From Halodesulfurarchaeum sp. (GTDB lineage Archaea > Halobacteriota > Halobacteria > Halobacteriales > Halobacteriaceae): 16,514 nt of DNA. A model generated the notes under the pieces. It was not told the DNA's origin, did no database searches, and saw nothing but the letters and a program-made list of their open reading frames with translations. Below are positions 1 to 16,446 of this stretch, piece after piece. The DNA lies in contig JBDGUI010000048.1 of assembly GCA_042216015.1 (NCBI GenBank), forward strand, positions 1 to 16,514. Direction: 5' to 3'. The first letter of the stretch is position 1. Every line of letters starts with the position of its first letter. The position numbers and the translations under genes were made by a program.

Positions 1-1869
1 ATACCGATCGAACTCGCGGTGGGGCAGATACATCGCCGACATGAACAGGTCGTGAAAGCCCTCCCACGCGGCGAGTTCGACGTACTCGACCGTCGACACA
101 ATGTGCTCGGCTTCCGCTCTTGCCCCCTCGTTCAGGAGCGCATACATCGCACCATAGCCTGCGGCGTTGCCGAGAAACTCCACGTCGTCGACGTCGACCT
201 CCGGATAGAGCCCGAGGAGCTTCGCCGACTCCGGGTCGATGTAGTTCCCGAACCCGCCGGCCATGACGAGTCGGTCGACCGACTCGATTCCGGCCTCCTC
301 GAGCAGAACGTGGGTGCCGGTCTGGATCGCGGCCTTCGCGTTCTGGATGTCCCGGATGTCCTCCTGGGAGACGACGATATCGTCGTCGATATCGGATTCG
401 GTGGTTTTCACCAGCACGAACTCACGGTCACCGTCCTCGGTCTCGCGAATGCGGCCACGCCCGTTTTCCGGGTCGATCAGTCGGCCCCGGCGGTTGATCG
501 CCCCCACCAGGAACAGCTGGGCCACGACGTCGAGAATGCCCGAGCCACAGATGCCCATCGGCGGTTCGTCCCCGATGACGCCCACCTCGGGCTTCCAGGT
601 CTCGGGATCGAGGCTGACCGTCTCGATGGCGCCCGGCTTGGCTCGCACCCCGTGGGTGATCTCGGCCCCCTCGAGGGCCGGTCCGGCGGGGGCGGAGGCG
701 ACGTAGGTCTTCTCCGGCCCCGAGACGGCGATCTCGCCGTTCGTCCCGATGTCGATCGCGAGGACGGTCTCCTCTCGATCGAGGACCCCGGCCGCCAGCA
801 GGTCGGCCACGAAGTCAGGACCGACCCAGCCTCCGATGATCGGGAGCCAGGAGACCGAGGCCGAGGGGTTCATCTCGAGATCCAGTTCCCTCGCGGTCGT
901 TCGGAGGATGGATCTGGCGCCCGGGACGTATGGTGAGGCCGCGACTGGACCGGCGTCGATGCCCAGGAAGAGGTGATGCATGGCGGTGTTGCCGACGAAG
1001 ACTGCCTCGTAGATGCCATCGGGATCGATGTCGGCCTGGTCTGTCACCTCCTCGATGCTCTCGTTGATGGCGCCGACGATTTCGGATTGGAGTTCGGCCT
1101 TGCCCTCCGACTCCTGGATGCTGTACTGGACTCGGCTGATGATGTCTCCGCCGTGGGTGCTCTGGGGATTGATCTTCGAGTCGACGGCAACCTGTTCGCC
1201 CGTCTGGAGGTCGAGCAGGTAGACGGCGACCGTCGTCGTCCCGATGTCGATCGCCAGGCCATAGGGATGACCGGGTCGACCCGGATCGATACCCAGGATC
1301 TCTTCTTCGCCGTACACAGTCGCCGTGGTTCGGAATTCCCCGTCTGTTTCTCCCTCTCGGATCGTCGAGGGAAGGGTGGTGAGTGCCCCCATGTCAACGT
1401 CGGTGATCTCGAGACCGTATTCCGATTGTAGCCCCTCGATGAGCCGCTCACGATCCGGGAGCGTGTCTTCGAGGGTCGGGGCGGGAATCGCGAGCTGGTG
1501 CCGGCGGATGGCCGGATCGAGTTCGAAGTCGATCTCCTGACCCTCCGTCATCACGATTTCCCCCTCGCTCCGTGAGGCCGCGGGGACGAAGACCGAGACG
1601 TCGCCCGTTACTTTCGCCCGACACCCGAGTCGGTACCCCTCCTCGAGTTCCTCCGCAGAGAGTACTGATTCCTCGTCCGGGTCGACGGGGGAGAGTGTCG
1701 ACTCGTCGCTTTCGACCTGTACTGCACAGGTTCCACAGAGGCCGTTTCCACCACATAGTGCTTCGATCCCTACGCCGCCTTTCTCGCCGGCAGCAAGGAC
1801 CGTCTCCCCCGGTTCGATCTGCACGTCAACTTCCCACGGGTCAAACGAGACTGTTGGCAAGGAATCCAT
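1..1869 (-). CDS. ASKHA-domain ATP-dependent reductive activator of corrinoid proteins (RACo/DUF4445 family) with N-terminal [2Fe-2S] ferredoxin domain; 3' end outside the window
   Basis: Manual translation of the minus strand from ATG 1869 (in-frame ATG also at 1872) is open for 623 codons to the window edge: MDSLPTVSFDPWEVDVQIEPGETVLAAG...ALCGGNGLCGTC...GYRLGCRA ([2Fe-2S] C39/C45/C48/C83), YGLAIDIGTTT, NPQSTHGGDIISR, VGNTAMHHLFLG, IGGWVGPD, LAIDIGTNGEI, APAGPALEG, GICGSG, QNAKAAI, AGGFGNYID, LGNAAGYGA. It is missing from the ORF track, probably because no stop codon lies in the window. Confidence 0.93.
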   Translation of the reverse strand, partial: MDSLPTVSFDPWEVDVQIEPGETVLAAGEKGGVGIEALCGGNGLCGTCAVQVESDESTLSPVDPDEESVLSAEELEEGYRLGCRAKVTGDVSVFVPAASRSEGEIVMTEGQEIDFELDPAIRRHQLAIPAPTLEDTLPDRERLIEGLQSEYGLEITDVDMGALTTLPSTIREGETDGEFRTTATVYGEEEILGIDPGRPGHPYGLAIDIGTTTVAVYLLDLQTGEQVAVDSKINPQSTHGGDIISRVQYSIQESEGKAELQSEIVGAINESIEEVTDQADIDPDGIYEAVFVGNTAMHHLFLGIDAGPVAASPYVPGARSILRTTARELDLEMNPSASVSWLPIIGGWVGPDFVADLLAAGVLDREETVLAIDIGTNGEIAVSGPEKTYVASAPAGPALEGAEITHGVRAKPGAIETVSLDPETWKPEVGVIGDEPPMGICGSGILDVVAQLFLVGAINRRGRLIDPENGRGRIRETEDGDREFVLVKTTESDIDDDIVVSQEDIRDIQNAKAAIQTGTHVLLEEAGIESVDRLVMAGGFGNYIDPESAKLLGLYPEVDVDDVEFLGNAAGYGAMYALLNEGARAEAEHIVSTVEYVELAAWEGFHDLFMSAMYLPHREFDRY

Positions 1870-1892
1870 CATGAACTCATATGGCGAAATCC

Positions 1893-1929
1893 GTTATATG
1901 CATTGTGCTGATTTGAACCTGGTGCACAA
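1893..1929 (-). promoter_or_regulatory. Candidate promoter of the RACo gene with adjacent inverted repeat TTGTGC-N15-GCACAA
   Basis: Minus-strand CATATAAC (about 1893-1901) lies about 25 bp upstream of ATG 1869/1872. Perfect 6-bp inverted repeat at 1903-1908 and 1924-1929. Confidence 0.45.
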
Positions 1930-2030
1930 AACAGCGGCCAGGGCGGTGGGCTCTTCGATCCGGGGATGGGGTCGACTTGATGGGCGACTCCCTGGCGAAG
2001 GATTATCTCCCCGGCCGGGCTACGTCCGGT

Positions 2031-2474
2031 ATGGAACCGGTTACCTACCAACCGATCGGCGTGGTCGAGTCCCCGTTCGAGACGCCCGATGACGTCCCTC
2101 GGCCCGGCACCGAGCCGGTCGCCGCCACGGGCACCCTGGCCATCGATAAGGCCCACGAGGCTGGGCTCCTCGGTCTCGAGGACTTCTCCCACGTGATCGT
2201 CCTCTCACATCTCCACGAGGTCGAGGACGTCCGGCTTCAGGTTCGACCGATGGGCGGGGACCCGGTCGGCATCTTCGCGACGTCGGGGCCGCCCCGGCCA
2301 AATCCGATCGGTCACTCGGTGCTTCGCCTGGAGGACGTCTCGGGAACGCGGCTGTCGGTCTCGAACCTGGATCTGGTGGACGGCACCCCGATCCTCGACC
2401 TCAAACCCTACGCCCCGAAGGGACCGCCGATCGAGGAACTGGAAATCGGGTGGATGGCAACCCTCTCGCAGTGA
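2031..2474 (+). CDS. tsaA: TsaA/TrmO-like (AF0241/YaeB family) single-domain SAM-binding beta-barrel protein
   Basis: Motifs PIGVVESPF, GLEDFSHVIVLSHLH, GIFAT..PRPNPIG.S, LDLVDGTPILDLKPY. Start moved to ATG 2031, which has a GATTAT box about 27 bp upstream; 147 aa. Confidence 0.85.
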   Translation: MEPVTYQPIGVVESPFETPDDVPRPGTEPVAATGTLAIDKAHEAGLLGLEDFSHVIVLSHLHEVEDVRLQVRPMGGDPVGIFATSGPPRPNPIGHSVLRLEDVSGTRLSVSNLDLVDGTPILDLKPYAPKGPPIEELEIGWMATLSQ

Positions 2475-2560
2475 GTTGTGGGACCGTTCGTCGTCGGGGT
2501 GGGTGGCCGGCCCTCTCTGCGACCATCAAGGTAATAGGCGTTTACCCAGTACGCCGTGAC

Positions 2561-3196
2561 ATGAACGCGGATCCACGCAGGGACGGACGGTCCGACGGTC
2601 GTCCAGTCCGAACTGACGGAGGAACGCCGATGCCGGGCGTGCCGGGCGAGGACGAGTCCTCGGCGGACCCCCGTGAATCCGATCCGGGGGAGCATGGGGA
2701 CACGACCGATCCTGCGGGCAGCCAGATGCCCGGCGTCCCGGAGCCGAAGGGAGAGAAGCCAGCGGTCGAATCGGGTGGTGAATCCTGTGAGGCGCCGACC
2801 GAGGAGGCGATGGACACATCGGCGGAGGCCGAGAACCACGAGCTTACGACCGCGTTCACCCTGGCTGCGCTGTCCCAGCTCGAAAACCCTGCGGGGGTGG
2901 TCGCCGAATCACGGTCCTGGTCTGACTGGGTCGGGGTGGTCGGCGACGCCGACGCCCCGACGATCAACACGTTCCTCCGTCGAGAGAGCGTCGATGTCGA
3001 CTTCTTCAATGGGGTGGCCTCGCCCGTGGAGCGGCTGTCCCGCGTCTCTGCGGAGGGATCGGCGTTCAACTCGGATCGGCTGGTTCTCGTGGGGCTCGAG
3101 GGACAGGGGGCAATCGCCGAGGAGGCCGGGTGGGAGTTCGAACGTCTCGTCCCGACGGCCGAAGAGGCGGGTTGGGAACTGCACACTCAGGAGTGA
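2561..3196 (+). CDS. Haloarchaeal conserved hypothetical protein (DUF7124-like C-terminal domain) with acidic disordered N-terminus
   Basis: ATG 2561 preceded by AAGGTAATAG at about -27. Contains a TDGG motif and two MPGVP repeats. The C-terminal domain (TTAFTLAALSQLENP...SWSDWVGVV...DFFNG...AEEAGWE x2) resembles a widespread haloarchaeal family, recalled from memory. Confidence 0.75.
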   Translation: MNADPRRDGRSDGRPVRTDGGTPMPGVPGEDESSADPRESDPGEHGDTTDPAGSQMPGVPEPKGEKPAVESGGESCEAPTEEAMDTSAEAENHELTTAFTLAALSQLENPAGVVAESRSWSDWVGVVGDADAPTINTFLRRESVDVDFFNGVASPVERLSRVSAEGSAFNSDRLVLVGLEGQGAIAEEAGWEFERLVPTAEEAGWELHTQE

Positions 3197-3390
3197 CTGC
3201 CGCGATTGGGTCCGTTTCGGGTTTGGGGCCTCGCCAACTCCCAGCCAGTCGGAACTCCCAGTACGATTAACTGCGCCGAACGGGTAGGGATTGGTATGTC
3301 CCGAAAACGCGGTCAGCGGGGATCGCCGATCGATCGGGAGCCACGGGACCGGGTGAGGGGACTGAAACTGAAACCGGGGGGATCCGCTCG

Positions 3391-3888
3391 ATGGGACTGA
3401 CCGACCATCCCGAACCGGTTCAGGAACTCCCGAACCGGAACGCGGGGCGGTATCTTCGGATGATTCTTCTTTCCGTCGATGGCCCCGAGGACGAGGTCCG
3501 GCCGAGTCAGATCGCGGATCGCCTGGGCGTCAGCCCGGCCAGCGTCACCGAAATGACGACCCACCTGACCGAATCGGGGTACGTCGATCACGAGCCCTAC
3601 GGTGGGATCTCCCTCACGCGGAAAGGGGCTTCGATGGCGCGGCACCTCCAGTGGCGACAGTGCGTCCTCGGTCGCTTCTTCGAGTCGACCCTCGACGTCG
3701 ACGTTCCGGGCACGGAAAGTTACGAGGCGAGCTTTGCCCTCCCGGGAGCAGTGCTCGAACGTGCGAGGGAGTACGTCGGACTGGAGTGCAAGAAACGCTG
3801 CAGTGAACGCGTGTGGGAGGACAGCTGTGTGGAACTGGAAACCCCCTCGTCCGATCGAACAGATCCCGCTACCGGGAGCGACCCGTGA
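3391..3888 (+). CDS. DtxR/MntR-family metal-dependent transcriptional regulator, Cys-rich variant
   Basis: Winged HTH signature YLRMI...VRPSQIADRLGVSPASVTEM..HL...GYVDHEPYGGISLT.KG; C-terminal C133-x3-C137-x8-C146. Confidence 0.88.
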   Translation: MGLTDHPEPVQELPNRNAGRYLRMILLSVDGPEDEVRPSQIADRLGVSPASVTEMTTHLTESGYVDHEPYGGISLTRKGASMARHLQWRQCVLGRFFESTLDVDVPGTESYEASFALPGAVLERAREYVGLECKKRCSERVWEDSCVELETPSSDRTDPATGSDP

Positions 3889-3904
3889 TCGGGGCCGATC
3901 ACGG
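3883..3904. repeat. Perfect 10-bp inverted repeat overlapping the DtxR-like stop codon (possible terminator or RNA hairpin)
   Basis: CCGTGATCGG-GG-CCGATCACGG; no U-tract follows. Confidence 0.5.
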
Positions 3905-4109
3905 TCGAGGACGATCCGTGACCGTGCCACGTCGCCGATTCCAAGGGCATTCGTCAATCGTCGTCATTTTGGCCGAACCAATCTGACCGACCCATATCAA
4001 TATGACACCTGGAAGGGGGCTGAAACCGGCCTTTTTCAGTTCCAAACGTGCCATTATCAAGACAGAGATAATCGTAAGATCTTTCTAGATTAAAGATAAA
4101 TATAAAATA

Positions 4110-4610
4110 ATGACAAAGTTAGAGAATATATCCACTGCAGATCTTCACGACGCGCTCGATGAGGTCGAGGAGAAAAAGCCAGCACAACGGTTGATGCTTG
4201 CGATTTTGTACAAACAGGGACCGTCCGTCCCGATGATCGGTGATTGGTTCGACATGCGCGATGAGACCATTTACCGCTGGTTCACGGAGATGGAAGAAAA
4301 CCCGCTCATGGAGGCCATTTACGATAAACCCCGTCCAGGACGTCCGACCAAGCTCGCCGAAGCGCAGCGTACAAAGTTTGAAGCCGCCCTGAAGGATCCG
4401 CCGAGGGACGCCGATCTCGAAGCTTCAGCCTGGACGCCGAAACTGGCTCGAAAATATCTGCGAGAGGAGTTTGATGTGGATTACTCGCTTCGACACGTTC
4501 GGCGGCTCATGCACGAGGCAGGTGTCTCATGGCAAACACCGCGGTCGGAGTCGCTCTCAGTCGACGGGGAAGAACGAGAAGTTGATCGCAAAGATATCAA
4601 AAATACATAA
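4110..4610 (+). mobile_element. IS630-family transposase N-terminal (HTH/wHTH) ORF without the DDE domain; remnant or domesticated DNA-binding protein
   Basis: MTKLENISTADLHDALDEVEEKKPAQRLMLAILYKQG...TIYRWF...D.PRPGRPTKL...AWTPKL...YLREEFDVDYSLRHVRRLMHEAGVSWQTPR matches haloarchaeal IS630 ORF-A. It ends at an A-run (ATCAAAAATACATAA) where such elements frameshift; no DDE ORF follows. Flanks are AT-rich. Confidence 0.82.
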
Positions 4611-4821
4611 TAGATTGCATTTGGATAAATTTTCTGCCGTCGCCAACGGTCGGACGAAACGAGGCAGAGATCCGATAATTCCGGCCCGATGAGACGTATG
4701 AACGCCGAGATGATCTGCCCTCTGTTCCAGTATTCCTTACATTATATGCGATTATTTCTGTCTGTGGGGACGGGTGTCGGGTGATCGGGACCATTATGAA
4801 CGTCCCATACGTCCTCATCCC

Positions 4822-5502
4822 ATGGCATTCGATCCAACCGTGGTCTCGACGGTCACATTTGACTCGTATAGTACGCTCGTCGATGTAGATGCTGCAGAGC
4901 GGGCTCTATCGGACGTCGTCGACGATCCCGAGGCCGTATCGAACCTCTGGCGCTCGCGCTCAATCGAGTATACCTTGGTTAGCAATCACATCGATGCCTA
5001 TCAAACCTTCTACGAGATGAACCGCGACGCGCTGACATACGCACTCGACGCCCACGATGTGGAATACGCTCCGGAGAGGCGGAACGAGATTCTCTCGGTC
5101 TACCACGAACTCGACGTGTTCGAGGACGTGCGGGCTGGGATGGAACGCCTTCGAGATGCCGGGTATGCCCTCTACGTCGTCTCCAACGGAAATCCCGAGA
5201 TGCTCTCTTCGATGGTCGAGCACGCGAACCTGGGTGACCTCCTCGATGGGACCATCAGCGCCGACGAGGTGGAGACGTTCAAGCCCTCCGCTGAAATTTA
5301 TCGACATGCCGCAGCCCGGACCGGAACCCCCATCGATGAGATCGCCCACGCGACCGCTGCGTGGTTTGACGTCCAGGGCGCCATGCATGCCGGGATGCAG
5401 GGCATCTGGATGAACCGCAAGGGTACTCCCTGGGAACCCTTCGATGGCGAACCGGATTTGACCGTTGAGACCATTCCCGACATCGTGGACGAACTCGTCT
5501 GA
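4822..5502 (+). CDS. Haloacid dehalogenase type II (HAD superfamily)
   Basis: TFDSYSTLVD (motif I), W+SR..EY, VVSNGN (motif II), FKPSAEIY (motif III), AAWFDVQGAMHAGM..IWMNR. ATG 4822 has CATTAT at about -27. Confidence 0.9.
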   Translation: MAFDPTVVSTVTFDSYSTLVDVDAAERALSDVVDDPEAVSNLWRSRSIEYTLVSNHIDAYQTFYEMNRDALTYALDAHDVEYAPERRNEILSVYHELDVFEDVRAGMERLRDAGYALYVVSNGNPEMLSSMVEHANLGDLLDGTISADEVETFKPSAEIYRHAAARTGTPIDEIAHATAAWFDVQGAMHAGMQGIWMNRKGTPWEPFDGEPDLTVETIPDIVDELV

Positions 5503-5690
5503 TTCACGGCACGAATCGTCTCACTTGGGTTCTTTGTTGGCAAACTGGGGTCCAGTGGGACCAAAATACGGCGAAGCACGCTTCACTCGTCTGTTCTCGA
5601 GTGTCGAACGAACAGGTGGGGGGGGGGTTTCGAACGATGATTCCTGACCGATGTACCCCTCTCGGCCATGGATCAAATCGGCTCAATACG

Positions 5691-5763
5691 ACTTAAAAAA
5701 CGAACCCTCTATATTACTATTAATTATATTTATCACGTACTTTATTCGCCAGGTTTATTTATC
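5691..5763. promoter_or_regulatory. AT-rich, probably bidirectional promoter region upstream of metY
   Basis: Plus strand: AGGTTTATTTAT at 5751-5762, about 27 bp before ATG 5785. Minus strand: TTTTTTAAGT at 5691-5700. AT-rich core at 5711-5733. Confidence 0.55.
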
Positions 5764-5784
5764 GACCTCCACTTTCTCGAATCG

Positions 5785-7080
5785 ATGACGGAAGATTCCG
5801 ACAACGGTATCCACACGCGATCGATCCACGCGGGCCAGGAGTCCGATTCAGCCACCGGCTCGCGCGCACCGCCCATCTACCAGACGACCTCTTACGAGTT
5901 CGAGGATGCCGAGGACGCCGCAGCCCAGTTCGCCCTCGAGAAACCCGGCTACGTCTACTCGCGGTTGATGAATCCGACCGTCGAGACCCTCCAGGAGCGA
6001 CTCGCCTCCCTTGAGGGCGGCGTCGGCGCGACGGTCACGGGCTCGGGAATGGCCGCACTGGACGTGACGACCTTCCTGCTCGCGGAGTCCGGGGACAACA
6101 TCGTCGCTGCCTCCTCGCTCTATGGCGGAACCCACACCTACCTGAACCACACCGCGCCCCGACGCGGGATCGACACCCGTTTCGTCGACACCCTCGAGTA
6201 CGACCAGTACCGCGAGGCGATTGACGAGGACACTGCCTACGTCCTCATCGAGACGATCGGCAATCCCGCCCTGATCACCCCGGACATCGAGCGGATCGCC
6301 GACATCGCCCACGAGAACGACACCCCATTGCTCGTGGACAACACCTTCGCGACGCCCTATCTCGCGAACCCGATCGAGTACGGCGCCGACCTCGTCTGGA
6401 ACTCCACGACCAAGTGGCTCCACGGGGCCGGCTCGACCGTCGGCGGGGTCATCGTCGACGCCGGGACCTTCCCGTGGAAGGAGCACGCCGACTCCTACCC
6501 CGAGATCGGTGGCGAGAACCCCGCCTATCACGGGGTCAACTTCGCCGACCGGTTCGGGGACGCCGCGTTCACGTACGCGGCGATCGCTCGTGGGCTGCGC
6601 GATCTGGGGAATCAGCAGTCCCCGTTCGACGCCTGGGTCACCCTGCAGAAACTTGAGAGCTTCCCGCTCCGAATCGCCCGTCACTCCGAGAACGCCGCCA
6701 TCGTGGCGGAGTACCTCGCGGACCACGAGGCCGTCGAGTGGGTCAATTACCCCGGGCTGGATAGCCACGAAACCGCCGAGAACGCCGAGAAGTACCTCGA
6801 GGGTGGCTACGGCGGCATGCTCACCTTCGGGATCGAGGGTGGCTACGAGCAGGCCCAGACGGTGGTCGAGTCGACGGAACTCGCGAGCCTGCTTGCGAAC
6901 GTTGGCGACGCGAAGACGCTCATCATCCATCCCGCCTCGACCACCCACCAGCAGCTCTCGGATAGCGAACTCGCGGATGCGGGCGTCAAACCCGATCTGA
7001 TCCGTCTCTCGGTGGGTATCGAGGACCCGGCGGACATCATCGCGGACCTGGAGCAGGCGATCGAGTCGGCGACGGAGTGA
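5785..7080 (+). CDS. metY: O-acetylhomoserine aminocarboxypropyltransferase (OAH/OAS sulfhydrylase), PLP-dependent
   Basis: TRSIHAGQ..D.ATGSRAPPIYQTTSY, YSRLMNPT, LEGG, SLYGGT, ETIGNP, VDNTFATPYL, STTKWLHG (PLP lysine), SLLANVGDAKTLIIHPASTTHQQL, IRLSVGIED; 431 aa. Confidence 0.95.
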   Translation: MTEDSDNGIHTRSIHAGQESDSATGSRAPPIYQTTSYEFEDAEDAAAQFALEKPGYVYSRLMNPTVETLQERLASLEGGVGATVTGSGMAALDVTTFLLAESGDNIVAASSLYGGTHTYLNHTAPRRGIDTRFVDTLEYDQYREAIDEDTAYVLIETIGNPALITPDIERIADIAHENDTPLLVDNTFATPYLANPIEYGADLVWNSTTKWLHGAGSTVGGVIVDAGTFPWKEHADSYPEIGGENPAYHGVNFADRFGDAAFTYAAIARGLRDLGNQQSPFDAWVTLQKLESFPLRIARHSENAAIVAEYLADHEAVEWVNYPGLDSHETAENAEKYLEGGYGGMLTFGIEGGYEQAQTVVESTELASLLANVGDAKTLIIHPASTTHQQLSDSELADAGVKPDLIRLSVGIEDPADIIADLEQAIESATE

Positions 7081-7150
7081 GGCTCTGACGTCACCCCGGC
7101 GGTATTGCTTCGATCGATTCCCCCTTGAGCCTGCGCGGCGAAGGTCGGAC

Positions 7151-7477
7151 ATGCACCTCTGTCTCATCGTCGAGACGAAGGAACCGGGACCGGTCTGGAA
7201 CGGCTTTCATCTCGGCAACTCGGCCCTCGAGGCCGGTCACGACGTCACGGCCTATCTCCTGGGGGACGGCGTCGAGGCGCCGGACCAGCCCGCGGGCGAG
7301 GACGTGAATCCACACGGAATCATCAGGAAGTTCCAGATGGAGGGGGGCGAACTGCTGGCGTGCGACCGCTGTCTCGACCACCGGGATATGGAGGCCGACG
7401 ACCTCCGACCGCGCGCAAAAATGGACGAACTCGTGGCGCTGATCGAGGACGCCGACGAAACTGTCTCGATCGCCTGA
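7151..7477 (+). CDS. DsrE/DsrF-like family protein (putative sulfur carrier or peroxiredoxin-like)
   Basis: 108 aa: WNGFHLGNSALEAGHDVTAYLLGDGVE...GGELLACDRCLDHR...MDELVALIEDAD, with the conserved DsrE cysteine inside a CxxC. Confidence 0.85.
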   Translation: MHLCLIVETKEPGPVWNGFHLGNSALEAGHDVTAYLLGDGVEAPDQPAGEDVNPHGIIRKFQMEGGELLACDRCLDHRDMEADDLRPRAKMDELVALIEDADETVSIA

Positions 7478-7886: not shown

Positions 7887-8156
7887 ATGCAGGCGACCGA
7901 GTCCGTCAAGGTACCCGATGGCAAACTGATCAGGGTCGAGGTGACCTTCGAGGAGACGATCGAGGACGTCGCGATCACGGGGGACTTCTTCCTCGAACCG
8001 CCCGAGGCCCTCTCCGACCTCGAGTCGGCGATCGAGGGCCATTCGACGGACGTCACCGAGGCCGAACTCCGAAGCGAGATCGAAACGGTCGAGGCCGACC
8101 TGATCGGCTTTGACGCCGCGGACCTCGCCGGGGTGACCGTGGAGGCGCTTCGATGA
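7887..8156 (+). CDS. lplB: Lipoate-protein ligase accessory subunit (stand-alone LplA C-terminal domain, LplB)
   Basis: KVPDGKLIRVEV...IEDVAITGDFFLEPPEALSDLESAIEG; 89 aa; ATGA overlap with the next gene. Confidence 0.85.
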   Translation: MQATESVKVPDGKLIRVEVTFEETIEDVAITGDFFLEPPEALSDLESAIEGHSTDVTEAELRSEIETVEADLIGFDAADLAGVTVEALR

Positions 8157-8899
8157 CGGTCCGACTGATCGACGAGGGCGAATTCGACGAGCCGATGCAT
8201 CACGCCCTCGATCAGGTCATGCTCGACCGCCTGAAGGCGGGCGAACTGGAACCGACCGTCCGGTTCTGGTACCGGACCGGTTCGGCCGTCCCACTCGGCC
8301 GGTTCCAGTCATACAGAGACGAGGTCGCCGTCGATTACGTCGAAAGCGAGGACATCGACGTCGTCCGACGCATTACGGGGGGCGGGGCGATGTTCGCCGA
8401 ACCGGGGGACGTCATCACCTACTCGATGTACCTGCCGACCTCGATGGTGCCCGAGGGAATCGAGGAGAGCTACGAGACGCTCAACCAGTGGGTCATCGAT
8501 GGCCTGTCCGCGGCCGGACTCGACGCCCAGCACGAACCGCTCAACGACATCAGCCACCCCGAGGGCAAGATCGGCGGTTCGGCCCAGCTCCGCTCCGGGG
8601 ACGCGGTCTTGCACCACACGACGATGAGCTATCGCGTCGACATGGAGGGGATGCTCAAGGCCCTCCGGATCGGGAAGGAGAAGGTCTCCGATAAGGCGGT
8701 CAAATCGGCAGAGAAACGGGTCGCCCGGATCACCGACCACGTCGAGGGTTCCCGACGGGACGTGATCGAGTCGCTGATCGACGGACTCGAGTCGGCCTAC
8801 AGTACCCGAAAGTCGTCCTACGAGACAGCGACACTCGAGGAGGCCCGCGAGTTGGCCGATTCGAAGTTCCGGACCACAGCGTGGAACGAACGATTGTAG
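8153..8899 (+). CDS. lplA: Lipoate-protein ligase catalytic subunit (LplA N-terminal domain)
   Basis: HHALDQ, TVRFW, LGRFQ...EV, VVRRITGGGAMF, PLNDI....GKIGGSAQ, VLHHTTM, KF.T..WN. Confidence 0.9.
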   Translation: MTVRLIDEGEFDEPMHHALDQVMLDRLKAGELEPTVRFWYRTGSAVPLGRFQSYRDEVAVDYVESEDIDVVRRITGGGAMFAEPGDVITYSMYLPTSMVPEGIEESYETLNQWVIDGLSAAGLDAQHEPLNDISHPEGKIGGSAQLRSGDAVLHHTTMSYRVDMEGMLKALRIGKEKVSDKAVKSAEKRVARITDHVEGSRRDVIESLIDGLESAYSTRKSSYETATLEEARELADSKFRTTAWNERL

Positions 8900-9083: not shown

Positions 9084-10121
9084 ATGACGGGGGAGCACTG
9101 GGGGAGCCGGACGGACCAGGATCGCGAATCCGATGCCGCGGAGTACCACGACCTGCGCGGGATCAGGGTGACCGTCGATCCCGCCTCCCACCTCGTCGGG
9201 CCGACGACGGATTCGAGCTACCACGGACTCCCGATCCGCGAGCCGGGCCCCCAGCAGGTCCCGACGGTGCGAACGGCCTATCACCCCTCCGCGATGACCG
9301 GGAGTCGGGATTCCGAGGAGATCATCGCCCGCGCACTGGGCGAACTCGACAAGCCCGTCCTCCTCGAGGGCGAGGCTGGCACCGGGAAGAACACGGCCAT
9401 GTTGACCCTCGCGAGTGAGACGAATCGGCCGGTCACCCGGATGAATTTCGGGGCCGATACGACCGTCTTCGACCTCATCGGCGAGAAGGACCTCGTGGGC
9501 GGGGACACCGTCTACGTGCTCGGCGAACTCGCCAAGGCCGCCCTCTTTGGCTGGATCTTCGTCGCCGACGAGATCAACATGGCCGAGGGGGACATCACCT
9601 CACACCTCCACGCAATCTGTGAGGAGGCCGGTCGTCGTCGACTCACGCTGCGGGGAACCGGACGGACGCTGACCGACCTTCCCTTGGAGACCGAATGGGA
9701 CCCCGAGAAGCACCTCGGTCGATACATCCACCCGGCGTTCCGGTTCGTCGGGACGGCGAACCCGCTCTCGTATGCCGGAACGAGCGAGATGAACGACGCC
9801 TTCCGGTCCCGGTTCGTCGTGCTGCCGGTCGAGTACCTGCCACCCGAGGAGGAAGCCGACCTGTTGATCGAGGAGACGGGCGTCGACCCGGAGACCGCCG
9901 GTCGCCTCACGTCCGTGGCCGAACGCCTCCGGGAGGCCCACCGGCGGGACGAACTGGAGACGCCGATCAGCCACCGCGAACTCCTGAAGGTCATCGAGAT
10001 GGCCGGTCCGGAGGAGGAGTTCATGCCCATTGCCGAGGCCGCTCGACTCGTGCTCGTCGGCCACGCCACCCTCAAACTCGACCGGGCCACGATCCGGGAC
10101 ACCATCACCGCCGAACTCTGA
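9084..10121 (+). CDS. MoxR-type AAA+ ATPase (CobS/NorQ/CbbQ-like)
   Basis: Walker A GEAGTGKN (9369-9392), DLIG, Walker B FVADEIN, IHPAFRFVGTANP..YAGT..MNDAFRSRF (sensor 1/Arg finger), ISHRELL (sensor 2); 345 aa from ATG 9084. Confidence 0.9.
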   Translation: MTGEHWGSRTDQDRESDAAEYHDLRGIRVTVDPASHLVGPTTDSSYHGLPIREPGPQQVPTVRTAYHPSAMTGSRDSEEIIARALGELDKPVLLEGEAGTGKNTAMLTLASETNRPVTRMNFGADTTVFDLIGEKDLVGGDTVYVLGELAKAALFGWIFVADEINMAEGDITSHLHAICEEAGRRRLTLRGTGRTLTDLPLETEWDPEKHLGRYIHPAFRFVGTANPLSYAGTSEMNDAFRSRFVVLPVEYLPPEEEADLLIEETGVDPETAGRLTSVAERLREAHRRDELETPISHRELLKVIEMAGPEEEFMPIAEAARLVLVGHATLKLDRATIRDTITAEL

Positions 10122-10122
10122 C

Positions 10123-12021
10123 ATGCGCATCGACAGCTCGACAAACCCCGAGGCCGTGTCGGCCCACCTCGACGCCGAGACGGCGTCGCTTCGAGAAAGT
10201 GAGGCCCGAGCCGACCGACTCCAGCGCGACGCCCGGATCAGGACCGGTCGCTGGGACCTCGAGGTCCGGATCGAGTCGGGATTTTCGCCGGCGACTCTCG
10301 ACGTTGCGGACGGCACTCCGATCGTGACGCTCTCCGGTGCGCCCGTCGGGCAGACGGTCACGGGGTACCCCGAGCGGGAGTGGCACCTGCTCGTCCAGCG
10401 GGTCCGGGTTCTCCACGAACTCACCCATCTCGCACACACCGATTTTGCCGACCTGCACGGGCGGCTCGAATCGGTCGACGAGGGTCACCGGCCGGTCGCC
10501 GCGTCGCTCTGGAACGCGCTCGAGGACGCCGCCATCGAGGGAACGATTCGCCAGCGGTGGCCGAATTACGGGGAGTGGTTACAGACGGTCCGGGCGAACC
10601 TCATTGCCGGGGTGGGGCCGGGGATTTCGGATCCGGATGGCGGACTGGTGTATCCGGTGGTGCAGGCGGCCGTTCTCGGGATTATGGACGGGACGGTCGT
10701 GGAGTCCGGCCCGCTCGGAACGCTGCTGGATCCAACGGTGGAGGGTCATCACTTTCACACCGAAGCTGATCGGGAGCGCTTCGAATCGACGGTGGTGCCG
10801 GCGATCGAGGAGACGACACGGGAATCGGTCGGCGTGAGCGATCCGGTCGAACGGAACCGGCTGGCAATCGAGTGTTTCGAGTCGATCCGACCGGCAATCG
10901 AACGGGCTGACGCCGACGGGAGAGCCCAGGTCTCGGCCTGGAGCGGGAACCACTGGGGCATGCCCGATGACGCGGCACACGGACCGGTTTCGAATCGTCC
11001 GGAGCCGCTTCCGACCGAGGTGGACTGGTCCCCGGTGTCGGCAGCCGCCAGCCGGAGCGGGCAAGCCGAACCGGATCGAAGCACCCGACGAACTGACGAG
11101 CCGAGAGTGCCGGCAGACGTGGATGCCCCGATGGACGACTCCACCGAGGAGGAACTCGAAACCCAGCTTTCCACGGATCTCGCTGCAGAGATCGAGGCCC
11201 AACGTCGACAGGCTCGCTCGCTCGACGACCGACGCGAGTCCCTCGAGGACCTCCAGGCGGCCGTTTCGGCGGCCGAGACCGAACTCGAGAGTGACGGTGT
11301 CGTGATTCCGACCGACGATCCGGATCCTCATCGGCCGACCATGGAGGCCGCGGAGGCAGACGGAACTCGCCTCGCCCGGGTGTTGAAGAACCGCTTCCAG
11401 AAGGAGCGAAAGCGGTCGATCCAGCGGAACGAACGCCGGGGTCGCATCGATCCGGCCGCGCTCCACCGACACGCTACTGGGGACCGACGGGTGAAACAGC
11501 GGCGGGAACGGCCGGATGAGGCCGAGCACCGCTGTCTGTTCGTGCTCGACCGCTCGGGCAGCATGCGCCAACACGTCCGGGTTGCCGAGCGGGCGATGGG
11601 GATGCTCGCGGTTGCCCTCGAGGCGGTCGACGTGGAGGTCTCCGTGCTCGAACTGCTCGACAAGGAGGTCCGGCTGGCAAAGCCGGTCGACCGGAACGTC
11701 GATCGGGCGGCGGGTCGCCTCTACCACGGCGAGGTCGGCGGGGGAACACCGCTCACGGACACCCTCCACATCGCCCGCGAATATCTCAAGCGGACCGACG
11801 GAACCCGGTTCGTGATCGTCGTGACCGACGGCCGGCCCTCCGAGCCGGACCGCTATCGCGAGGCGCTGAACCGCTTTACCGTTCCGGTACTGGGCGTGAA
11901 TCTCACCACCGAGGAGGCCGCGGGGGAGAGCGAATTCCACCGTCAGGTCACCGTCCCGCCGGAGACCGAACAGCTTCGCCGCGCGCTCCGACAGCTCGTC
12001 CAGGAGGTGCTCTTCGAGTGA
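10123..12021 (+). CDS. vWA-domain protein (CobT/NorD-like) with N-terminal HExxH metallopeptidase-like domain and acidic linker
   Basis: Starts 1 bp after the AAA stop. LHELTH (H98), WNALEDAAIE (E134), acidic/Pro linker, RGRIDPAAL, intact MIDAS DRSGS (D476)...GGTP...VVTDG; 632 aa. Confidence 0.88.
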   Translation: MRIDSSTNPEAVSAHLDAETASLRESEARADRLQRDARIRTGRWDLEVRIESGFSPATLDVADGTPIVTLSGAPVGQTVTGYPEREWHLLVQRVRVLHELTHLAHTDFADLHGRLESVDEGHRPVAASLWNALEDAAIEGTIRQRWPNYGEWLQTVRANLIAGVGPGISDPDGGLVYPVVQAAVLGIMDGTVVESGPLGTLLDPTVEGHHFHTEADRERFESTVVPAIEETTRESVGVSDPVERNRLAIECFESIRPAIERADADGRAQVSAWSGNHWGMPDDAAHGPVSNRPEPLPTEVDWSPVSAAASRSGQAEPDRSTRRTDEPRVPADVDAPMDDSTEEELETQLSTDLAAEIEAQRRQARSLDDRRESLEDLQAAVSAAETELESDGVVIPTDDPDPHRPTMEAAEADGTRLARVLKNRFQKERKRSIQRNERRGRIDPAALHRHATGDRRVKQRRERPDEAEHRCLFVLDRSGSMRQHVRVAERAMGMLAVALEAVDVEVSVLELLDKEVRLAKPVDRNVDRAAGRLYHGEVGGGTPLTDTLHIAREYLKRTDGTRFVIVVTDGRPSEPDRYREALNRFTVPVLGVNLTTEEAAGESEFHRQVTVPPETEQLRRALRQLVQEVLFE

Positions 12022-12332
12022 GCCTCCCGGTGTATGAGTGCACGGTCTGTGGCACCCGACAGCCGGTCAGGGACGTCGACAGGGCGAACCCGCCACAGAA
12101 ACTTGGCAACACGCAGTGTCAGGGCGCCTATGGCGGCTGTCTCCGCTCGATTCGACTCGAATACGTCCCTGATGCCAGGTGGGAAGCCGGCGAATGGGAC
12201 CTCCGCTGTCCCCGGTGTGGCTACGAGACGGTCGCCTGGGGCGAGATGGGGTTTGGCCCCACCGATCGATGGTCCTGTCCGGACTGCGAGAGCCGGATGC
12301 TCGTCGAACGCGTCGAGAACCGGGCCGAGTGA
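12018..12332 (+). CDS. Small double zinc-finger (CPxCG-related) protein
   Basis: GTGA overlap with the vWA stop; eight cysteines: YECTVCG, C-x6-C, CPRCG, CPDC. Confidence 0.75.
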   Translation: MSLPVYECTVCGTRQPVRDVDRANPPQKLGNTQCQGAYGGCLRSIRLEYVPDARWEAGEWDLRCPRCGYETVAWGEMGFGPTDRWSCPDCESRMLVERVENRAE

Positions 12333-12373
12333 GAGCCCGAAGATCCATACATCCTCCCCGTCTGCGTTCGGTC

Positions 12374-13801
12374 ATGGCGCTGCTCTCCCCGGACGCCCGG
12401 CAGACGATTCACGCGGGCGCACTCGACCTGCTGACCGACCACGGCATGCGGGTCGAACACGAGACGGCACGGGAGGACCTGGCCGCCGCCGGCGCGACTG
12501 TCGAGGGCGAGACGGTCACTGTCCCCGCGGACCTCCTCGAGGAGGCCGTCGACGACGCGCCGGCGACGTTCCGATGGCGGGCCCGCGATCCCGAAAAGAG
12601 CGTGCGGGTGGGCACTGACGAGCCGGTGATCGCCCCGACCCGGGGGCCGCGATACGTCAAACGGCCCGGTGAACCCCGCCACCGGGCGAGGATGGCTGAC
12701 TTTCACACCCTCGTCGAACTGGTCCACGAAGAGTCGGCGATCGACGTCGTCGGCTACGATCTGGCCAGCCCCGAAGGATATTCCCTGCCCGGGAATCCGG
12801 GCGGGCTAGAGGAGCCGGCGGTGGGGTACGAACTTCTTGAGGCACTTTTCACCGGTACGGACAAGCCCATCGTCGGCTCGGCCCGGAGCGGTGGCGAAGC
12901 CGCCGCCTCCCTGGAGATGGCACGGATCGCCTTCGAGGAATCGACCCTCTCCGAACCGTCGGTGCTGGCGATCCTCTGTCTGCGCTCGCCCAGACTGTTC
13001 AACGAGCCCATCGTCGACGGGATGATCCAGTACGCTCGCGCCGGGCAACCGCTCGTGGTCTCCTCGGGGGCGATTCCCGGTGCCTCTGCCCCTCACTCCC
13101 TCGCGGAGACGGCGGTCCAGGCCACTGCCGAATCGCTTTTCGGCGTGGCCCTGGTCCAGGTGGTAAACTCGGGAACGCCGGTGGTCTTCGGCCGCGCGAG
13201 CACGATGTACGACCGGGCGGCAGACGCCGTCTCCGCGGGAATACCTGGATCGACGCTCCAGGGGGTGATGGTCGAGATGGCCGGGTTTTACGGCCTTCCC
13301 TCGCGGGGACACGGGGCCGCCACCGACGCGAAGGCGATCGACGAGCAGAGTGGGGCCGAATCGATGCACCACCTCGCGAAGGGACTGGATTCCGGTGCGG
13401 ATTTGCTCCTGAACGCCACCGGGGGCCTCGATACCTTCGGCGCCGTCTCTCCGGAGAAGACCGTCCTCGACGCCGAACGGATCAGGTTGCTGCGCCGGTC
13501 GGAATCGGAGGCACAGGCCCTCACGGATCGACTCGACTCCGGGGCGATCACCGATTCGATGCGGATCGGCAACCCCCGTGAACCGTTCTTCGATGACCGC
13601 GATCCCGAATCGATCCCGGACGCGCCGGTCTTCGAGGGGACGATCGGGATCCGCGGGAGCCAGGAGGCCTGGACCGAAGCGGGCGAACCGACGATCGCCG
13701 ACCGGGCGACCGAGCGCGTGGAGCAGCTACTGGAGGCCTACGAACGACCGCCGATCGATTCGGAAGTCGCCGCGGAACTTGCCGCCCAGGGCGAGGACTG
13801 A
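12374..13801 (+). CDS. MttB-superfamily (trimethylamine methyltransferase family) corrinoid methyltransferase, non-pyrrolysine, divergent
   Basis: LLS......IHAGALDLL...GM, AP..F...ARDP, TDKPI, GASAP.SLA, QVVNSGTPVVFG, FYGLPSRGHGAATDAKAIDEQSGAES, GGLD.....SPEK.VLD, W.EAG, LEAYERPPID; 475 aa with no in-frame amber codon. Confidence 0.9.
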   Translation: MALLSPDARQTIHAGALDLLTDHGMRVEHETAREDLAAAGATVEGETVTVPADLLEEAVDDAPATFRWRARDPEKSVRVGTDEPVIAPTRGPRYVKRPGEPRHRARMADFHTLVELVHEESAIDVVGYDLASPEGYSLPGNPGGLEEPAVGYELLEALFTGTDKPIVGSARSGGEAAASLEMARIAFEESTLSEPSVLAILCLRSPRLFNEPIVDGMIQYARAGQPLVVSSGAIPGASAPHSLAETAVQATAESLFGVALVQVVNSGTPVVFGRASTMYDRAADAVSAGIPGSTLQGVMVEMAGFYGLPSRGHGAATDAKAIDEQSGAESMHHLAKGLDSGADLLLNATGGLDTFGAVSPEKTVLDAERIRLLRRSESEAQALTDRLDSGAITDSMRIGNPREPFFDDRDPESIPDAPVFEGTIGIRGSQEAWTEAGEPTIADRATERVEQLLEAYERPPIDSEVAAELAAQGED

Positions 13802-13912
13802 GTAGCTCTGTGGGGGAAAGTGGCTCAAGAGTGATATCTGAGTGGTCCCTGAGCGAGGAACTGAGTGGCCCAGATAGCGGACTGAGTTACCCCTGAACGA
13901 TGACTGGGTGCT
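13798..13912. repeat. Degenerate tandem repeats with CTGAGT core and about 22-bp period between convergent genes
   Basis: CTGAGT at 13798, 13838, 13861 and 13882; CTGGGT at 13904; partial copy near 13816. Confidence 0.6.
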
Positions 13913-13949
13913 TGGTCTGTCCCTCCCTTCGACGGCGTCTTCGCTTGGC

Positions 13950-14023
13950 TCGTCGGCGGGATTTTCGACCACTCAATCGTCTGCGGTATCCGCGAGCGTT
14001 CCATCGTCGGCGGGATTTTCGAC
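13950..14023. repeat. Perfect 20-bp direct repeat (54-bp offset) inside a 27-bp-period array at the btuD 3' end
   Basis: TCGTCGGCGGGATTTTCGAC at 13950-13969 and 14004-14023. Confidence 0.85.
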
Positions 14024-15364
14024 GGCTCCATCATCTGTGGCGTCTTCGATCCCCCCATCGACGGCGGCTTCGACCGCCTCGAGGACGTTCCGGGAGTGGA
14101 CCGTCACCGCCCGCTCCCTGAGTGACTCGTAGAGCTCCTCCCCTCGCACGCCGGCGTAATTCCGCTCCTCGAGGGGGCGGTCCTCGATCAGGATCAACTC
14201 GTTTGCACTCGCCGCCGCCCGGAGGTTCGCCAGATTGCCGTGCCCGATCGCCACGTCGGCAAGCACCGTCACGGCTGCCTCTTCGACACGCTCGGTCACC
14301 GCCTTGGCGGTGGCGTCGTCGATGGGTGCATAGGGCTCGAGGGTCTCGGCATCGATGCCCAGCATTCGGGCGGTCTCGATGTCCGCGTCCCCCTCGTTGA
14401 GCGCGCCGGTCGTCACCTGATAGCCGCTGGCAGCGAGGAGGTAGAGCAAGCGGGCAGCCGACCCCCCGCCCCCGATGACGTGAACGTGTGGGCCGTTCCG
14501 ATCCCTGGCCCCCTCTGGAAGCGCCATGACGTAGACCGACCCGGTGACCGGGTTGTTCGTGACGACCGCGTCGGTCCCGAAGGCGGATTCGAGGTTGTCC
14601 TCGGTCAGGACCTCACTCGGTGGGCCGAGGGCGGTTCGGATCCCATCAGAGAGCAGGAGGAGTCGATCGCAGTAGTGGGCCGCGAGATTTAGGTCGTGAA
14701 TCGGGGCCATGACCGTCTTTCCCTCCTCGACGAGGGACTTGACCAGTTCCAGGGTCCGGATCTGGTGATTGATGTCGAGGCTGGCTGTGGGCTCGTCGAG
14801 CAACATGACCGGTGTGTCCTGGGCGAGCGCCCTCGCGAGCAGCACCCGCTGGCGCTCGCCGCCGCTGACGTCGCCGATGTTCCGCTTTGCGAAGTCGGCG
14901 ACCTGGGTCCGCTCGAGCGCCCGGTCGACGATGGAGGCCTCCCCGGTCTGATCGAAACTGACGCGTTGCTTGTAGGGGGTGCGTCCCATCTCCACGACCT
15001 CCCGGACGGTGAAGTCGAAGGCGAGGTTGGTCTCCTGGGGGACGACGGCGACGAGCCGGCTACTCGCCTTCGACGGGAGCGTGTTGATGTCGTGCTCGTC
15101 GACGGACACGGAGCCAGCCGTCGGTTCGAGAACTCCGCTGATCGTGCGGAGGAGGGTCGTCTTTCCGGAGCCGTTCGGACCGATCACTCCCATGAACTCG
15201 CCGCGGTCGACGTCGACGGAGACATCCTCGAGTGCTCGAACCTCGCCGAGGGTCACCGAGACGCTCTCGACGTCGACGATCGGGTCCGAACGCTCGCCCG
15301 CCGTCTCGACCCGATCCGTCGTCCCGCTGATGCCGTCGAGGATATCGGCAAATCGGGAACTCAC
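13973..15364 (-). CDS. btuD: Cobalamin/Fe-siderophore ABC transporter ATP-binding protein (BtuD-like) with extra C-terminal domain
   Basis: GPNGSGKTT, VPQE, VSGGERQRV, LLDEPTASLD, HDLNLAA; GTGA overlap with the permease; C-terminal HVIGGGG domain as in haloarchaeal BtuD. Cobalamin specificity is inferred. Confidence 0.85.
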   Translation of the reverse strand: MSSRFADILDGISGTTDRVETAGERSDPIVDVESVSVTLGEVRALEDVSVDVDRGEFMGVIGPNGSGKTTLLRTISGVLEPTAGSVSVDEHDINTLPSKASSRLVAVVPQETNLAFDFTVREVVEMGRTPYKQRVSFDQTGEASIVDRALERTQVADFAKRNIGDVSGGERQRVLLARALAQDTPVMLLDEPTASLDINHQIRTLELVKSLVEEGKTVMAPIHDLNLAAHYCDRLLLLSDGIRTALGPPSEVLTEDNLESAFGTDAVVTNNPVTGSVYVMALPEGARDRNGPHVHVIGGGGSAARLLYLLAASGYQVTTGALNEGDADIETARMLGIDAETLEPYAPIDDATAKAVTERVEEAAVTVLADVAIGHGNLANLRAAASANELILIEDRPLEERNYAGVRGEELYESLRERAVTVHSRNVLEAVEAAVDGGIEDATDDGAVENPADDGTLADTADD

Positions 15365-16446
15365 AGGGCATGCACCTCCCGTCGGCGGAGCAGGAAGAGG
15401 AAGAAGGGTGCACCAAGCGCGGCCGTCACGATGCCGACCGGGATCTCACCGGCCCAGGTCCGCGCGATGGTGTCGGTGGCGACGAGGAAACCCGCTCCGG
15501 CAATTGCACTCGTGGGCAGCAGGATCCGGTGATCCGGGCCCACGACGAGCCGCATCATGTGGGGGACGATCAGCCCGACGAATCCGATGACCCCGGAGAC
15601 GGCGACGGCCGCGGCCGTGATCAGACTCGAAACGCCCAGGAGGATTCGCTTGGTCCGTTCGACCTCGATCCCGAGGGTCGCGGCGTCCTCCTCGCCCAGC
15701 AGGAGGACGTTGAGGTCGCGGCTGTACCAGGCCAGGACGAGAAAGAGCGCGGGAACGAACAGCATGGCGAATTCGACCTCGTCCCAGGTCGCATTGTGGA
15801 GATGCCCCATCAGCCAGTAGACCGCCTGTTCGAGGCTCTGACCCCCCATCGTGAGCATGAACGAGATGACCGCACCGAGGAAGGTCTGCACGGCCACCCC
15901 CGCGAGCAGCAGGGTCGCGACCGGCGTTCGACCGTTCTCCGACGCGATGAGATAGACCCCGAAGGCCGCGAGCAGGCCGGTGACGAAGGCGGCGGGTCGG
16001 AGTCCGATCGGAATCGGCAGCACGATGGCCGCGACCGCACCGACCGCCGCGCCGGTCGAGACGCCGATGATCGACGGGTCGGCCATGGGATTTCGAAAGA
16101 ACCCCTGCATGACCGACCCCGCGACCGCCAGGGCAAACCCCACGAGTGCCCCGAGGACGATCCGCGGCATCCGCACCGCCCAGACGATCGTCGTGGTGGT
16201 CTGGGAAAGATCGAAGTGAAAGAGGCTCGTGAATCCGAGCCCCGGCCATGGAATTTGCACGCCGGCAAGCGATGTCGTCCCGGCAACGGAGATCGAGGTC
16301 GGGACGGCGAGGTGATTGAGAAGCACCTTGAGCACGGCCACCGGGGCGATCGGCACGGGCCCGATCCCGGCACTCACCGTCACGATGGCAAAGAGGAGTG
16401 CGGACAGAGCCGCACTCCACGTGAGCGTCCGGGTCCGAAGCCCCAT
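15361..16446 (-). CDS. btuC: Vitamin B12 ABC transporter permease (BtuC, FecCD family)
   Basis: RMPRIVLGALVGFALAVAGSVMQGFFRNPMADPSIIGVSTGA, YWLMG, LLLGEEDAATLGI, GVIGFVGLIVPH, EIPVGIVTAALGAPFF. Start at ATG 16446 (alternative 16452). Confidence 0.88.
   Translation of the reverse strand: MGLRTRTLTWSAALSALLFAIVTVSAGIGPVPIAPVAVLKVLLNHLAVPTSISVAGTTSLAGVQIPWPGLGFTSLFHFDLSQTTTTIVWAVRMPRIVLGALVGFALAVAGSVMQGFFRNPMADPSIIGVSTGAAVGAVAAIVLPIPIGLRPAAFVTGLLAAFGVYLIASENGRTPVATLLLAGVAVQTFLGAVISFMLTMGGQSLEQAVYWLMGHLHNATWDEVEFAMLFVPALFLVLAWYSRDLNVLLLGEEDAATLGIEVERTKRILLGVSSLITAAAVAVSGVIGFVGLIVPHMMRLVVGPDHRILLPTSAIAGAGFLVATDTIARTWAGEIPVGIVTAALGAPFFLFLLRRREVHAL

Follow-up and report, generated by a model that had tools for sequence, protein, structure and literature searches.

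Parts of probably three corrinoid-linked modules in a Halodesulfurarchaeum genome stretch, with a probable glycine betaine gene cluster elsewhere in the same genome

The window analysed here is a stretch of 16,514 nucleotides at the start of contig C18 (G000:C18:1-16514) in a Halodesulfurarchaeum metagenome-assembled genome (MAG), G000, and it encodes a RACo/DUF4445 reductive activator, an MttB-superfamily methyltransferase and a BtuCD corrinoid importer. Our analysis makes it fairly likely that this Halodesulfurarchaeum, a salt-lake archaeon that avoids oxygen, feeds tetrahydrofolate (THF) by corrinoid-dependent methyl transfer through several modules, and that the window holds pieces of three of them. 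A complete gene set for glycine betaine, which is widely used for protection against salt, lies on contig C8 of the same MAG; the genes themselves are observed there, and from them we infer flux through a betaine route.

The haloarchaeal host proposed in the initial annotation is borne out by the acidic proteome of G000 (D+E 16.6%, K 1.9%) and by protein matches, in which the nearest named relatives are Halodesulfurarchaeum. The assembly comprises 1.68 Mb in 51 contigs and is 86.6% complete. The gene calls of the window stood as well: Pfam and NCBIfam confirm RACo, the MttB-family gene and btuD/btuC, the activator matches the solved RACo structure 3zyy (E 6e-108), and the methyltransferase is free of pyrrolysine, with no in-frame stop or amber codon in its gene and no PylS over the cut-off in 5/5 genomes, G000 included.

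A search of the G000 genome returned two MttB proteins, two full RACo proteins and a fragment, one MtrH/MtgA protein and four B12-binding matches. Two of these four matches lie in far longer proteins and were set aside as corrinoid candidates; one of the two was scanned and proved to be a radical SAM enzyme. The genome does contain corrinoid proteins and a THF-type acceptor methyltransferase. A DxHxxG corrinoid protein, MtgA and an activator are located together at C8:29986-57868, which encodes FolC-FolP, a BCCT transporter, the corrinoid protein, an aldehyde:ferredoxin oxidoreductase, an 846-residue flavoprotein, electron-transfer flavoprotein (ETF), FolD, MetF, MtgA, RACo, FdhA, Fhs, MttB, a cupin and a second FdhA. 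The four members of the putative methyl-transfer system are:

C8:34280-34954, DxHxxG corrinoid protein
C8:44056-44964, MtgA (PDB MtgA 6sj8, E 6e-64)
C8:45202-47154, RACo dedicated to the cluster
C8:53797-55260, MtgB-like MttB (PDB MtgB 9yce, E 4e-118)

The pocket of MtgB has been defined as Y97, R312, H348 and F356, termed the minimum set, and the F356Y variant is near wild type (PMC13080624). The C8 MttB carries Y, R, H and Y at these sites and so presents the MtgB binding motif. The 846-residue flavoprotein matches dimethylglycine oxidase (PDB 1pj5, E 3e-133), and cobamide-synthesis genes adjoin the cluster. G004, G010 and G020 have this set of genes clustered as well, and G394, which belongs to another family, has it clustered in a rearranged order; a stretch of G416 shows it from FdhA to ETF. 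McrA and CdhC (acetyl-CoA synthase), the markers of methylotrophic methanogenesis and acetogenesis, were each found over the cut-off in 0/5 genomes with positive controls, G000 being 87% complete, in agreement with the non-methanogenic character first proposed for this DNA. Among the four molybdopterin enzymes of G000 (two FdhA, a formate dehydrogenase-like protein on C43 and a type II enzyme of the dimethyl sulfoxide (DMSO)-reductase family), the last scores over its cut-off and is the candidate electron-acceptor enzyme of this MAG. The idea of osmolyte demethylation is supported at the level of the genome and not at that of the window; C8 has its own RACo and MttB.

In the route that we propose, BCCT would import glycine betaine, the C8 MtgB would methylate the C8 corrinoid protein with formation of dimethylglycine, and MtgA would pass the methyl group on to THF, with the dedicated RACo re-reducing Co(II) at the expense of ATP. 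The dimethylglycine oxidase/dehydrogenase-like flavoenzyme and ETF may then strip a second methyl group as methylene-THF, and MetF, FolD, Fhs and FdhA would oxidise the one-carbon units to CO2, gaining ATP at Fhs. The electrons would go to anaerobic respiration, possibly through the DMSO-reductase-family enzyme. As for the window, its RACo is expected, from the genes found in relatives, to activate a second system made of UroD-fold first methyltransferases (MT1), corrinoid proteins and a pterin-binding second methyltransferase (MT2). Its MttB, in a unit with an AAA+/VWA pair, would most likely take methyl groups from some other donor than betaine and pass them to a shared corrinoid protein.

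The C8 cluster resembles the Mtg system of Desulfitobacterium hafniense, which performs glycine betaine:THF methyl transfer for anaerobic respiration: both have all four components (MtgB, MtgC, MtgA and a RamA-like activator), the residues that bind betaine, an MtgA of the MtrH type, a BCCT transporter and oxidation linked to THF (PMC13080624). Unlike in D. hafniense, the host is a salt-in haloarchaeon with acidic proteins, and the cluster also holds the dimethylglycine-oxidising flavoenzyme, ETF and two FdhA. The same chemistry occurs in M. vulcani and marine roseobacters (PMC12478193). Neither the MttB nor the RACo of the window is a member of the Mtg-like system on C8.

The claim that such a trait is not standard in Halobacteria held up. 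Among 401 genomes of the class, MttB exceeds its cut-off in 11 (12 at E<=0.001), RACo in 5, and MtrH/MtgA in the same 5; because RACo and MttB are rare, their presence here exceeds background. The five RACo genomes all lie within the 11 MttB genomes, and six MttB genomes have no RACo. The corrinoid cap domain is restricted, among the 11, to the five with RACo and MtgA. Within the genus, MttB, RACo and MtgA are each present in 10/12 genomes, and the same two MAGs are without all three. The other genomes with both MttB and RACo (G004, G010, G020 and G394) are 98-99% complete versus 87% for G000. The six genomes without RACo (G022, G071, G073, G119, G326 and G376; loci L058-L069) have an MtgB-like MttB near Fhs, FolC-FolP and a dimethylglycine enzyme, and most also have ETF and BCCT genes nearby. 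Neither a corrinoid cap domain nor RACo nor MtgA is present anywhere in these genomes, and Asn stands at the H348 site in five of the six; they may rely on free cobalamin or reach THF by a different path. Besides, G394 has three MttB paralogues (L052-L057), all near dimethylglycine-type flavoenzymes and two beside BCCT transporters; one paralogue, beside an ABC transporter, has Gly at the Y97 site.

The first corrinoid-linked gene of the window lies at its left edge.

1..1872, minus strand, RACo/DUF4445 reductive activator, second copy in the genome (Pfam, PDB 3zyy), cut by the contig end

Its N-terminal 2Fe-2S ferredoxin, linker, middle and ASKHA C-terminal Pfam domains all exceed their cut-offs; the Cys cluster motif is present, as are two DIGT motifs. 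At the contig edge the protein stops about 16 C-terminal residues short of the 640 residues found in a congener. The protein scores under the cut-off of the NCBIfam AcsV and RamA models and is 51% identical to the C8 RACo. A quick tree of 15 rows separated RACo proteins into three clades matching three gene contexts: that of the betaine cluster (support 100), a clade of five containing the window RACo (support 99, with the UroD-linked copy of G394 unresolved beside it), and that of a corrinoid protein-MttB-RACo cassette (support 98). This compact third cassette is found at G020:C12, G420:C131, G421:C25, G422:C6 and G423:C7; its MttB is about 29% identical to the C8 MttB, and the G020 copy is without R312. 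A 40-residue RACo C-terminal remnant at G000:C2:38815-38946 is possibly what is left of a deleted third cassette.

In 6/6 relatives (G004, G010, G020, G394, G416 and G418), the gene following the window-type RACo encodes a UroD-fold protein of about 430 residues. In the five of these neighbourhoods where the genes were annotated individually (G010, G020, G394, G416 and G418), corrinoid proteins, a pterin-binding MT2, MFS transporters and DUF1638 come next. The best PDB match of the UroD-fold MT1 is CdmB (E 6e-29), and its nearest non-haloarchaeal homologues, which include proteins named from Chloroflexota, Jordarchaeaceae and Moorellales, are 45-50% identical. The window RACo is a second activator and, by this gene order, probably serves a UroD-type (MtvB/MtoB/CdmB-like) methyltransferase system. 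From its likeness to Mtv and Mto, such a system would most likely O-demethylate methoxylated aromatics, haloalkanes or different methyl donors being the alternative substrates. The prediction that corrinoid and pterin-binding genes lie downstream of this RACo is thus right for the relatives, with partners that belong to a UroD-type, probably O-demethylating, system; in G000 itself, C18 ends inside RACo. The sole Pterin_bind match in G000 was rejected as MT2 because the protein is FolC-FolP. Elsewhere in this MAG, G000:C3:64583-68960 encodes a LigM/DesA-like demethylase, an uncharacterised protein, a corrinoid protein and an MtaA/CmuA-like methyltransferase.

The partners of the window-type RACo recall Mto of Methermicoccus shengliensis, Mtv of Moorella thermoacetica (PMC8630106) and Cdm of Acetobacterium dehalogenans (PMC13222342), a likeness to MtoB and MtvB that is drawn from published descriptions. 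Shared features are two or three UroD-fold MT1s of about 430 residues, corrinoid proteins, MT2, MFS transporters and an activator whose N terminus bears a 2Fe-2S site. The MT2 of the relatives is pterin-binding (AcsE/O-demethylase type) versus the MtrH-like MtoA. CdmB, which is grouped with MtoB, MtvB, OdmB and VdmB, is a close relative of O-demethylases that prefers haloalkanes (PMC13222342), and an operon similar in make-up to the RACo-UroD cluster is described in PMC8630106. Four supplementary files of the latter paper and the readable files of PMC13222342 contain no Halodesulfurarchaeum, Halalkaliarchaeum or Halobacteria.

The second corrinoid-linked gene closes a conserved unit of four.

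9084..10121, plus strand, MoxR/NorQ-type AAA+ ATPase, first gene of the AAA-VWA-zinc ribbon-MttB unit (PF07728, PF08406)
10123..12021, plus strand, VWA (MIDAS) partner protein (PF05762, PF13519)
12018..12332, plus strand, small double zinc-ribbon protein overlapping the VWA stop codon (conserved position; Pfam and atlas leads under cut-off only)
12374..13801, plus strand, divergent non-pyrrolysine MttB-superfamily protein (PF06253, residues, model)

The window MttB matches PF06253 with 280 bits and is 30% identical to the C8 MttB. Its AlphaFold model (pLDDT 94.9) is a TIM barrel with a TM score of 0.88 to MtgB 9yce; a single-sequence fold (pLDDT 37) was discarded. It shows R90, R311, N347 and F355 at the Y97, R312, H348 and F356 sites of MtgB, two of the four not matching, and the MtgB binding motif is absent. 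In MtgB, Y97A raises the Km from 0.88 to 320 mM and H348N raises it to 23 mM (PMC13080624). In a quick tree (three long rows unplaced), the protein falls in a clade of 33 rows with support 100 and a long stem branch of 0.82, the named members of which are haloarchaea. Arg occupies the Y97 cation-π site in 26/26 core clade members versus 1/105 representatives outside, R312 is retained in 30/30 members, and the F356 position varies (F/Y/H/Q). Four matching loci, three titled Halodesulfurarchaeum and one Halobacteriales, are 69-85% identical to the window MttB, a protein named from H. formicicum is 65% identical, and homologues are named from isolates HSR-GB, AArc-GB and H-GB1-1. A profile search of 1.84 billion representatives gave six proteins at 812-390 bits, followed by ordinary MttBs at 365 and below. 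When metagenomes were scanned with the alignment of this clade, all 76 retained loci proved distant (26-32% identity), and no neighbourhoods of the clade came from them.

The VWA, zinc-ribbon and MttB genes are contiguous in 9/9 genomes that carry this clade, and in all nine MttB lies behind the AAA+/VWA pair. The AAA+ gene occurs in 9/11 congeners and in 0/44 other family members at E<=1e-40, as well as in 0/5 other MttB-bearing genomes at E<=1e-10. The family of the VWA protein is small, with 26 members that share >=61% identity across the C-terminal region, and homologues are named from HSR-GB and H-GB strains; the ESM atlas returned generic VWA matches and, for the zinc ribbon, only leads below 0.9. 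This gene order, together with the known behaviour of MoxR/VWA pairs, suggests that MttB is possibly a client of the AAA+/VWA pair. A complex prediction for MttB and the VWA domain scored 0.00, which is no verdict and was used neither way. A second AAA+/VWA pair, 50% and 38% identical to that of the window, lies at G000:C7:40245-43255 with no adjoining MttB.

We regard the window MttB as most likely a re-tooled methyltransferase paralogue acting on a substrate other than glycine betaine. That it would instead be catalytically inactive, as a binding, scaffolding or regulatory protein or as an AAA+/VWA client without methyl transfer, is improbable in our view. The long stem branch, the replacement of the cation-π Tyr by Arg, the variable F356 position and the lack of an adjacent corrinoid gene in the neighbourhoods examined all speak for inactivity, whereas the full fold is kept, R312 is invariant in the clade, and comparison with G416 indicates purifying selection (dN 0.091, dS 0.68, dN/dS about 0.13). 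Moreover, the aromatic pair is not conserved in the active enzymes MtcB, MtpB, MthB and MtyB (PMC13080624). Like these non-pyrrolysine enzymes, the window MttB has retained the fold and the conserved Arg312, the residue binding the acidic group of the substrate; it appears to differ from them in the Arg at the Y97 site and the linkage to AAA+/VWA.

The third element, convergent with mttB, is the importer.

13973..15364, minus strand, BtuD-like corrinoid ABC ATPase (NF007082, 460 bits, cut-off 537)
15361..16446, minus strand, BtuC corrinoid ABC permease (NF007081, 561 bits versus a cut-off of 461)

The corrinoid ABC ATPase model is the best match of BtuD, yet the score is under the cut-off; BtuC belongs by cut-off to the haloarchaeal BtuFCD importer family, and a BtuC over this cut-off occurs in 197/201 genomes of the class. 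BtuCD is an ordinary, general haloarchaeal B12 importer. A difference from that importer is the position of the candidate binding-protein gene, which lies on C8 with cobamide-synthesis genes (cbiB, cobS) on one side and the betaine cluster on the other.

The initial annotation had read the window RACo, MttB and BtuCD as one unit for demethylation of an onium osmolyte, completed leftward by corrinoid and THF transferase genes. This now appears quite unlikely, even if corrinoid and pterin MT2 genes do occur downstream of this RACo in relatives, BtuD follows MttB convergently in 7/8 checkable congeners, one corrinoid protein can serve several MttB paralogues (PMC12478193), and the modules are near each other (the distance between the window-type RACo and the betaine cluster is 28 kb in G416 and 42 kb in G010). 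Indeed, RACo and MttB are separated by 10.5 kb, wider in G010, and lie on opposite strands, the genes between them being unrelated. Between RACo and btuDC stand trmO, a DUF7124 gene, a DtxR-like regulator, an IS630 remnant, a HAD hydrolase, metY, dsrE, a split lipoate ligase and the AAA+, VWA and zinc-ribbon genes. Furthermore, the RACo neighbours are UroD-type MT1s, the MttB is without the aromatic Y97 and H348, btuC is nearly ubiquitous in the class, G422 retains AAA-VWA-MttB with no adjacent BtuD, and the three genes follow three different proteome patterns in H. formicicum (PMC5437934).

These patterns come from the spectral counts of Table S11 of PMC5437934, a proteome published in 2017 (S0/thiosulfate/DMSO, the third column being labelled HTRS), which we mapped to the present genes by gene order and annotation. 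Orthologues of the betaine cluster are high in all three columns (MttB 49/82/39, MtgA 23/37/26, corrinoid protein 29/23/23, RACo 20/31/25), and that of the dimethylglycine enzyme, labelled 'GcvT', is the most abundant protein (95/192/103). The window-RACo orthologue (10/21/4) behaves like its UroD (12/28/5) and MT2 (11/25/2) neighbours, the window-MttB orthologue (5/0/8) like AAA (6/0/20) and VWA (2/2/13), and BtuC and BtuD give 0/1/0 and 0/0/0 (PMC5437934). The patterns are compatible with three modules and prove nothing on substrates.

Several points weigh against the reading of a betaine-fed methyl route accompanied by two further modules. The counts are small single values from another species; betaine is absent from the donors listed as tested in PMC5437934, and the betaine cluster is abundant in formate-grown cells to which no betaine was added, which suits a reductive or constitutive role too. 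Growth or enzyme data with betaine were not found in our open-literature search. The C8 proteins score under their NCBIfam cut-offs (MtgA 249 versus 550, MtgC 221 versus 310, MttB 300 versus 525), and no polysulfide reductase was seen among the four molybdopterin matches of G000. The UroD MT1, pterin MT2 and DUF1638 genes were searched for in the G000 assembly and not found, so that the second module is demonstrated only in relatives. Four of the five RACo/MtgA genomes belong to one genus, so that the five represent two lineages, not five independent cases. Finally, the window-type MttB has BtuD next to it in 7/8 checkable congeners.

Part of this would be accommodated if the C8 cluster were mainly reductive and biosynthetic, turning formate into methyl-THF for methionine, purines or the conversion of dimethylglycine to betaine, with no energy route. 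PMC5437934, whose main text never mentions betaine, corrinoid or cobalamin, assigns the THF genes to biosynthesis, and the abundance on formate agrees with this. We consider such a role unlikely, as it leaves unexplained the betaine importer, the intact MtgB pocket, the dimethylglycine-oxidising flavoenzyme with ETF and the two FdhA in one cluster, and 390/401 Halobacteria do without an MttB over the cut-off. Yeast extract in the medium may also have supplied betaine.

If the betaine-to-CO2 route operates, Halodesulfurarchaeum, which is described as limited to formate and H2, would bring a methylotrophic energy metabolism to Halobacteria at the highest salinities, and the main osmolyte would be consumed without release of trimethylamine. 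Trimethylamine is the usual feed of halophilic methanogens. In the same vein, what the published proteome labels glycine cleavage T, its most abundant protein, would be re-read as a dimethylglycine-oxidising enzyme (PMC5437934). The chemistry is that of the known Mtg system, and annotations of these genes have stood in public genomes since 2017. No description of the Mtg pathway in Halobacteria was found in the open literature, most subscription journals lying outside that search, nor were its terms found in the available text of PMC6176080, PMC11332174, PMC8966722, PMC13595746 or bioRxiv 2021.10.18.464844; the last reports that mttB is abundant in metagenomes from salt flats and interprets the gene as methanogenic. 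Our findings would thus amount to a known system in a class where no description of it was found, plus two less understood modules. The novelty is tempered by strains listed at NCBI (HSR-GB, AArc-GB and three H-GB strains), which suggest that specialists may already have the phenotype. Our guess is that the suffix GB means glycine betaine, in which case the phenotype is probably already in hand.

As a more tentative extension, sulfur- and DMSO-respiring haloarchaea might be broad anaerobic methylotrophs at salt saturation. They would use betaine, methoxylated aromatics through the Mto/Mtv-like system of this RACo, and, through the window-MttB clade with its arginine-rich pocket and its own AAA+/VWA chaperone, probably a more anionic, non-betaine donor.

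Minor observations concern the window and its surroundings. No end overlap was found between C18 and C8, the latter terminating in a tRNA-like stretch. No RNA sequencing run containing the window sequence is listed, and a sigma-70 promoter scan of the window gave nothing above shuffles, a model irrelevant for an archaeon. One DNA sequencing contig, 5,103 bases long, shares the window's first 30 bases and continues leftward from there; its run may be the source of the MAG. The DUF7124 and DtxR genes flank a short gap in the window (3196-3391), a spot taken up in G004, G010 and G416 by a molybdopterin/4Fe-4S/NrfD operon; this operon, which by gene order is the polysulfide reductase of PMC5437934, is also absent from that spot in G418. 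An IS630 transposase fragment and a type II haloacid dehalogenase lie in a low-GC patch (47-62%) at 4110-5502 that was not seen at the equivalent site in G004, G010, G416 and G418. The split lipoate-protein ligase (7887-8899, small subunit then catalytic subunit) is directly upstream of the AAA gene; in G422 the two are separated. To the right of the window, G000:C18:16650-17456 encodes an aminoglycoside 3-N-acetyltransferase-family protein scoring under NCBIfam cut-offs, and a gene of this family also lies upstream of btuC in congeners.

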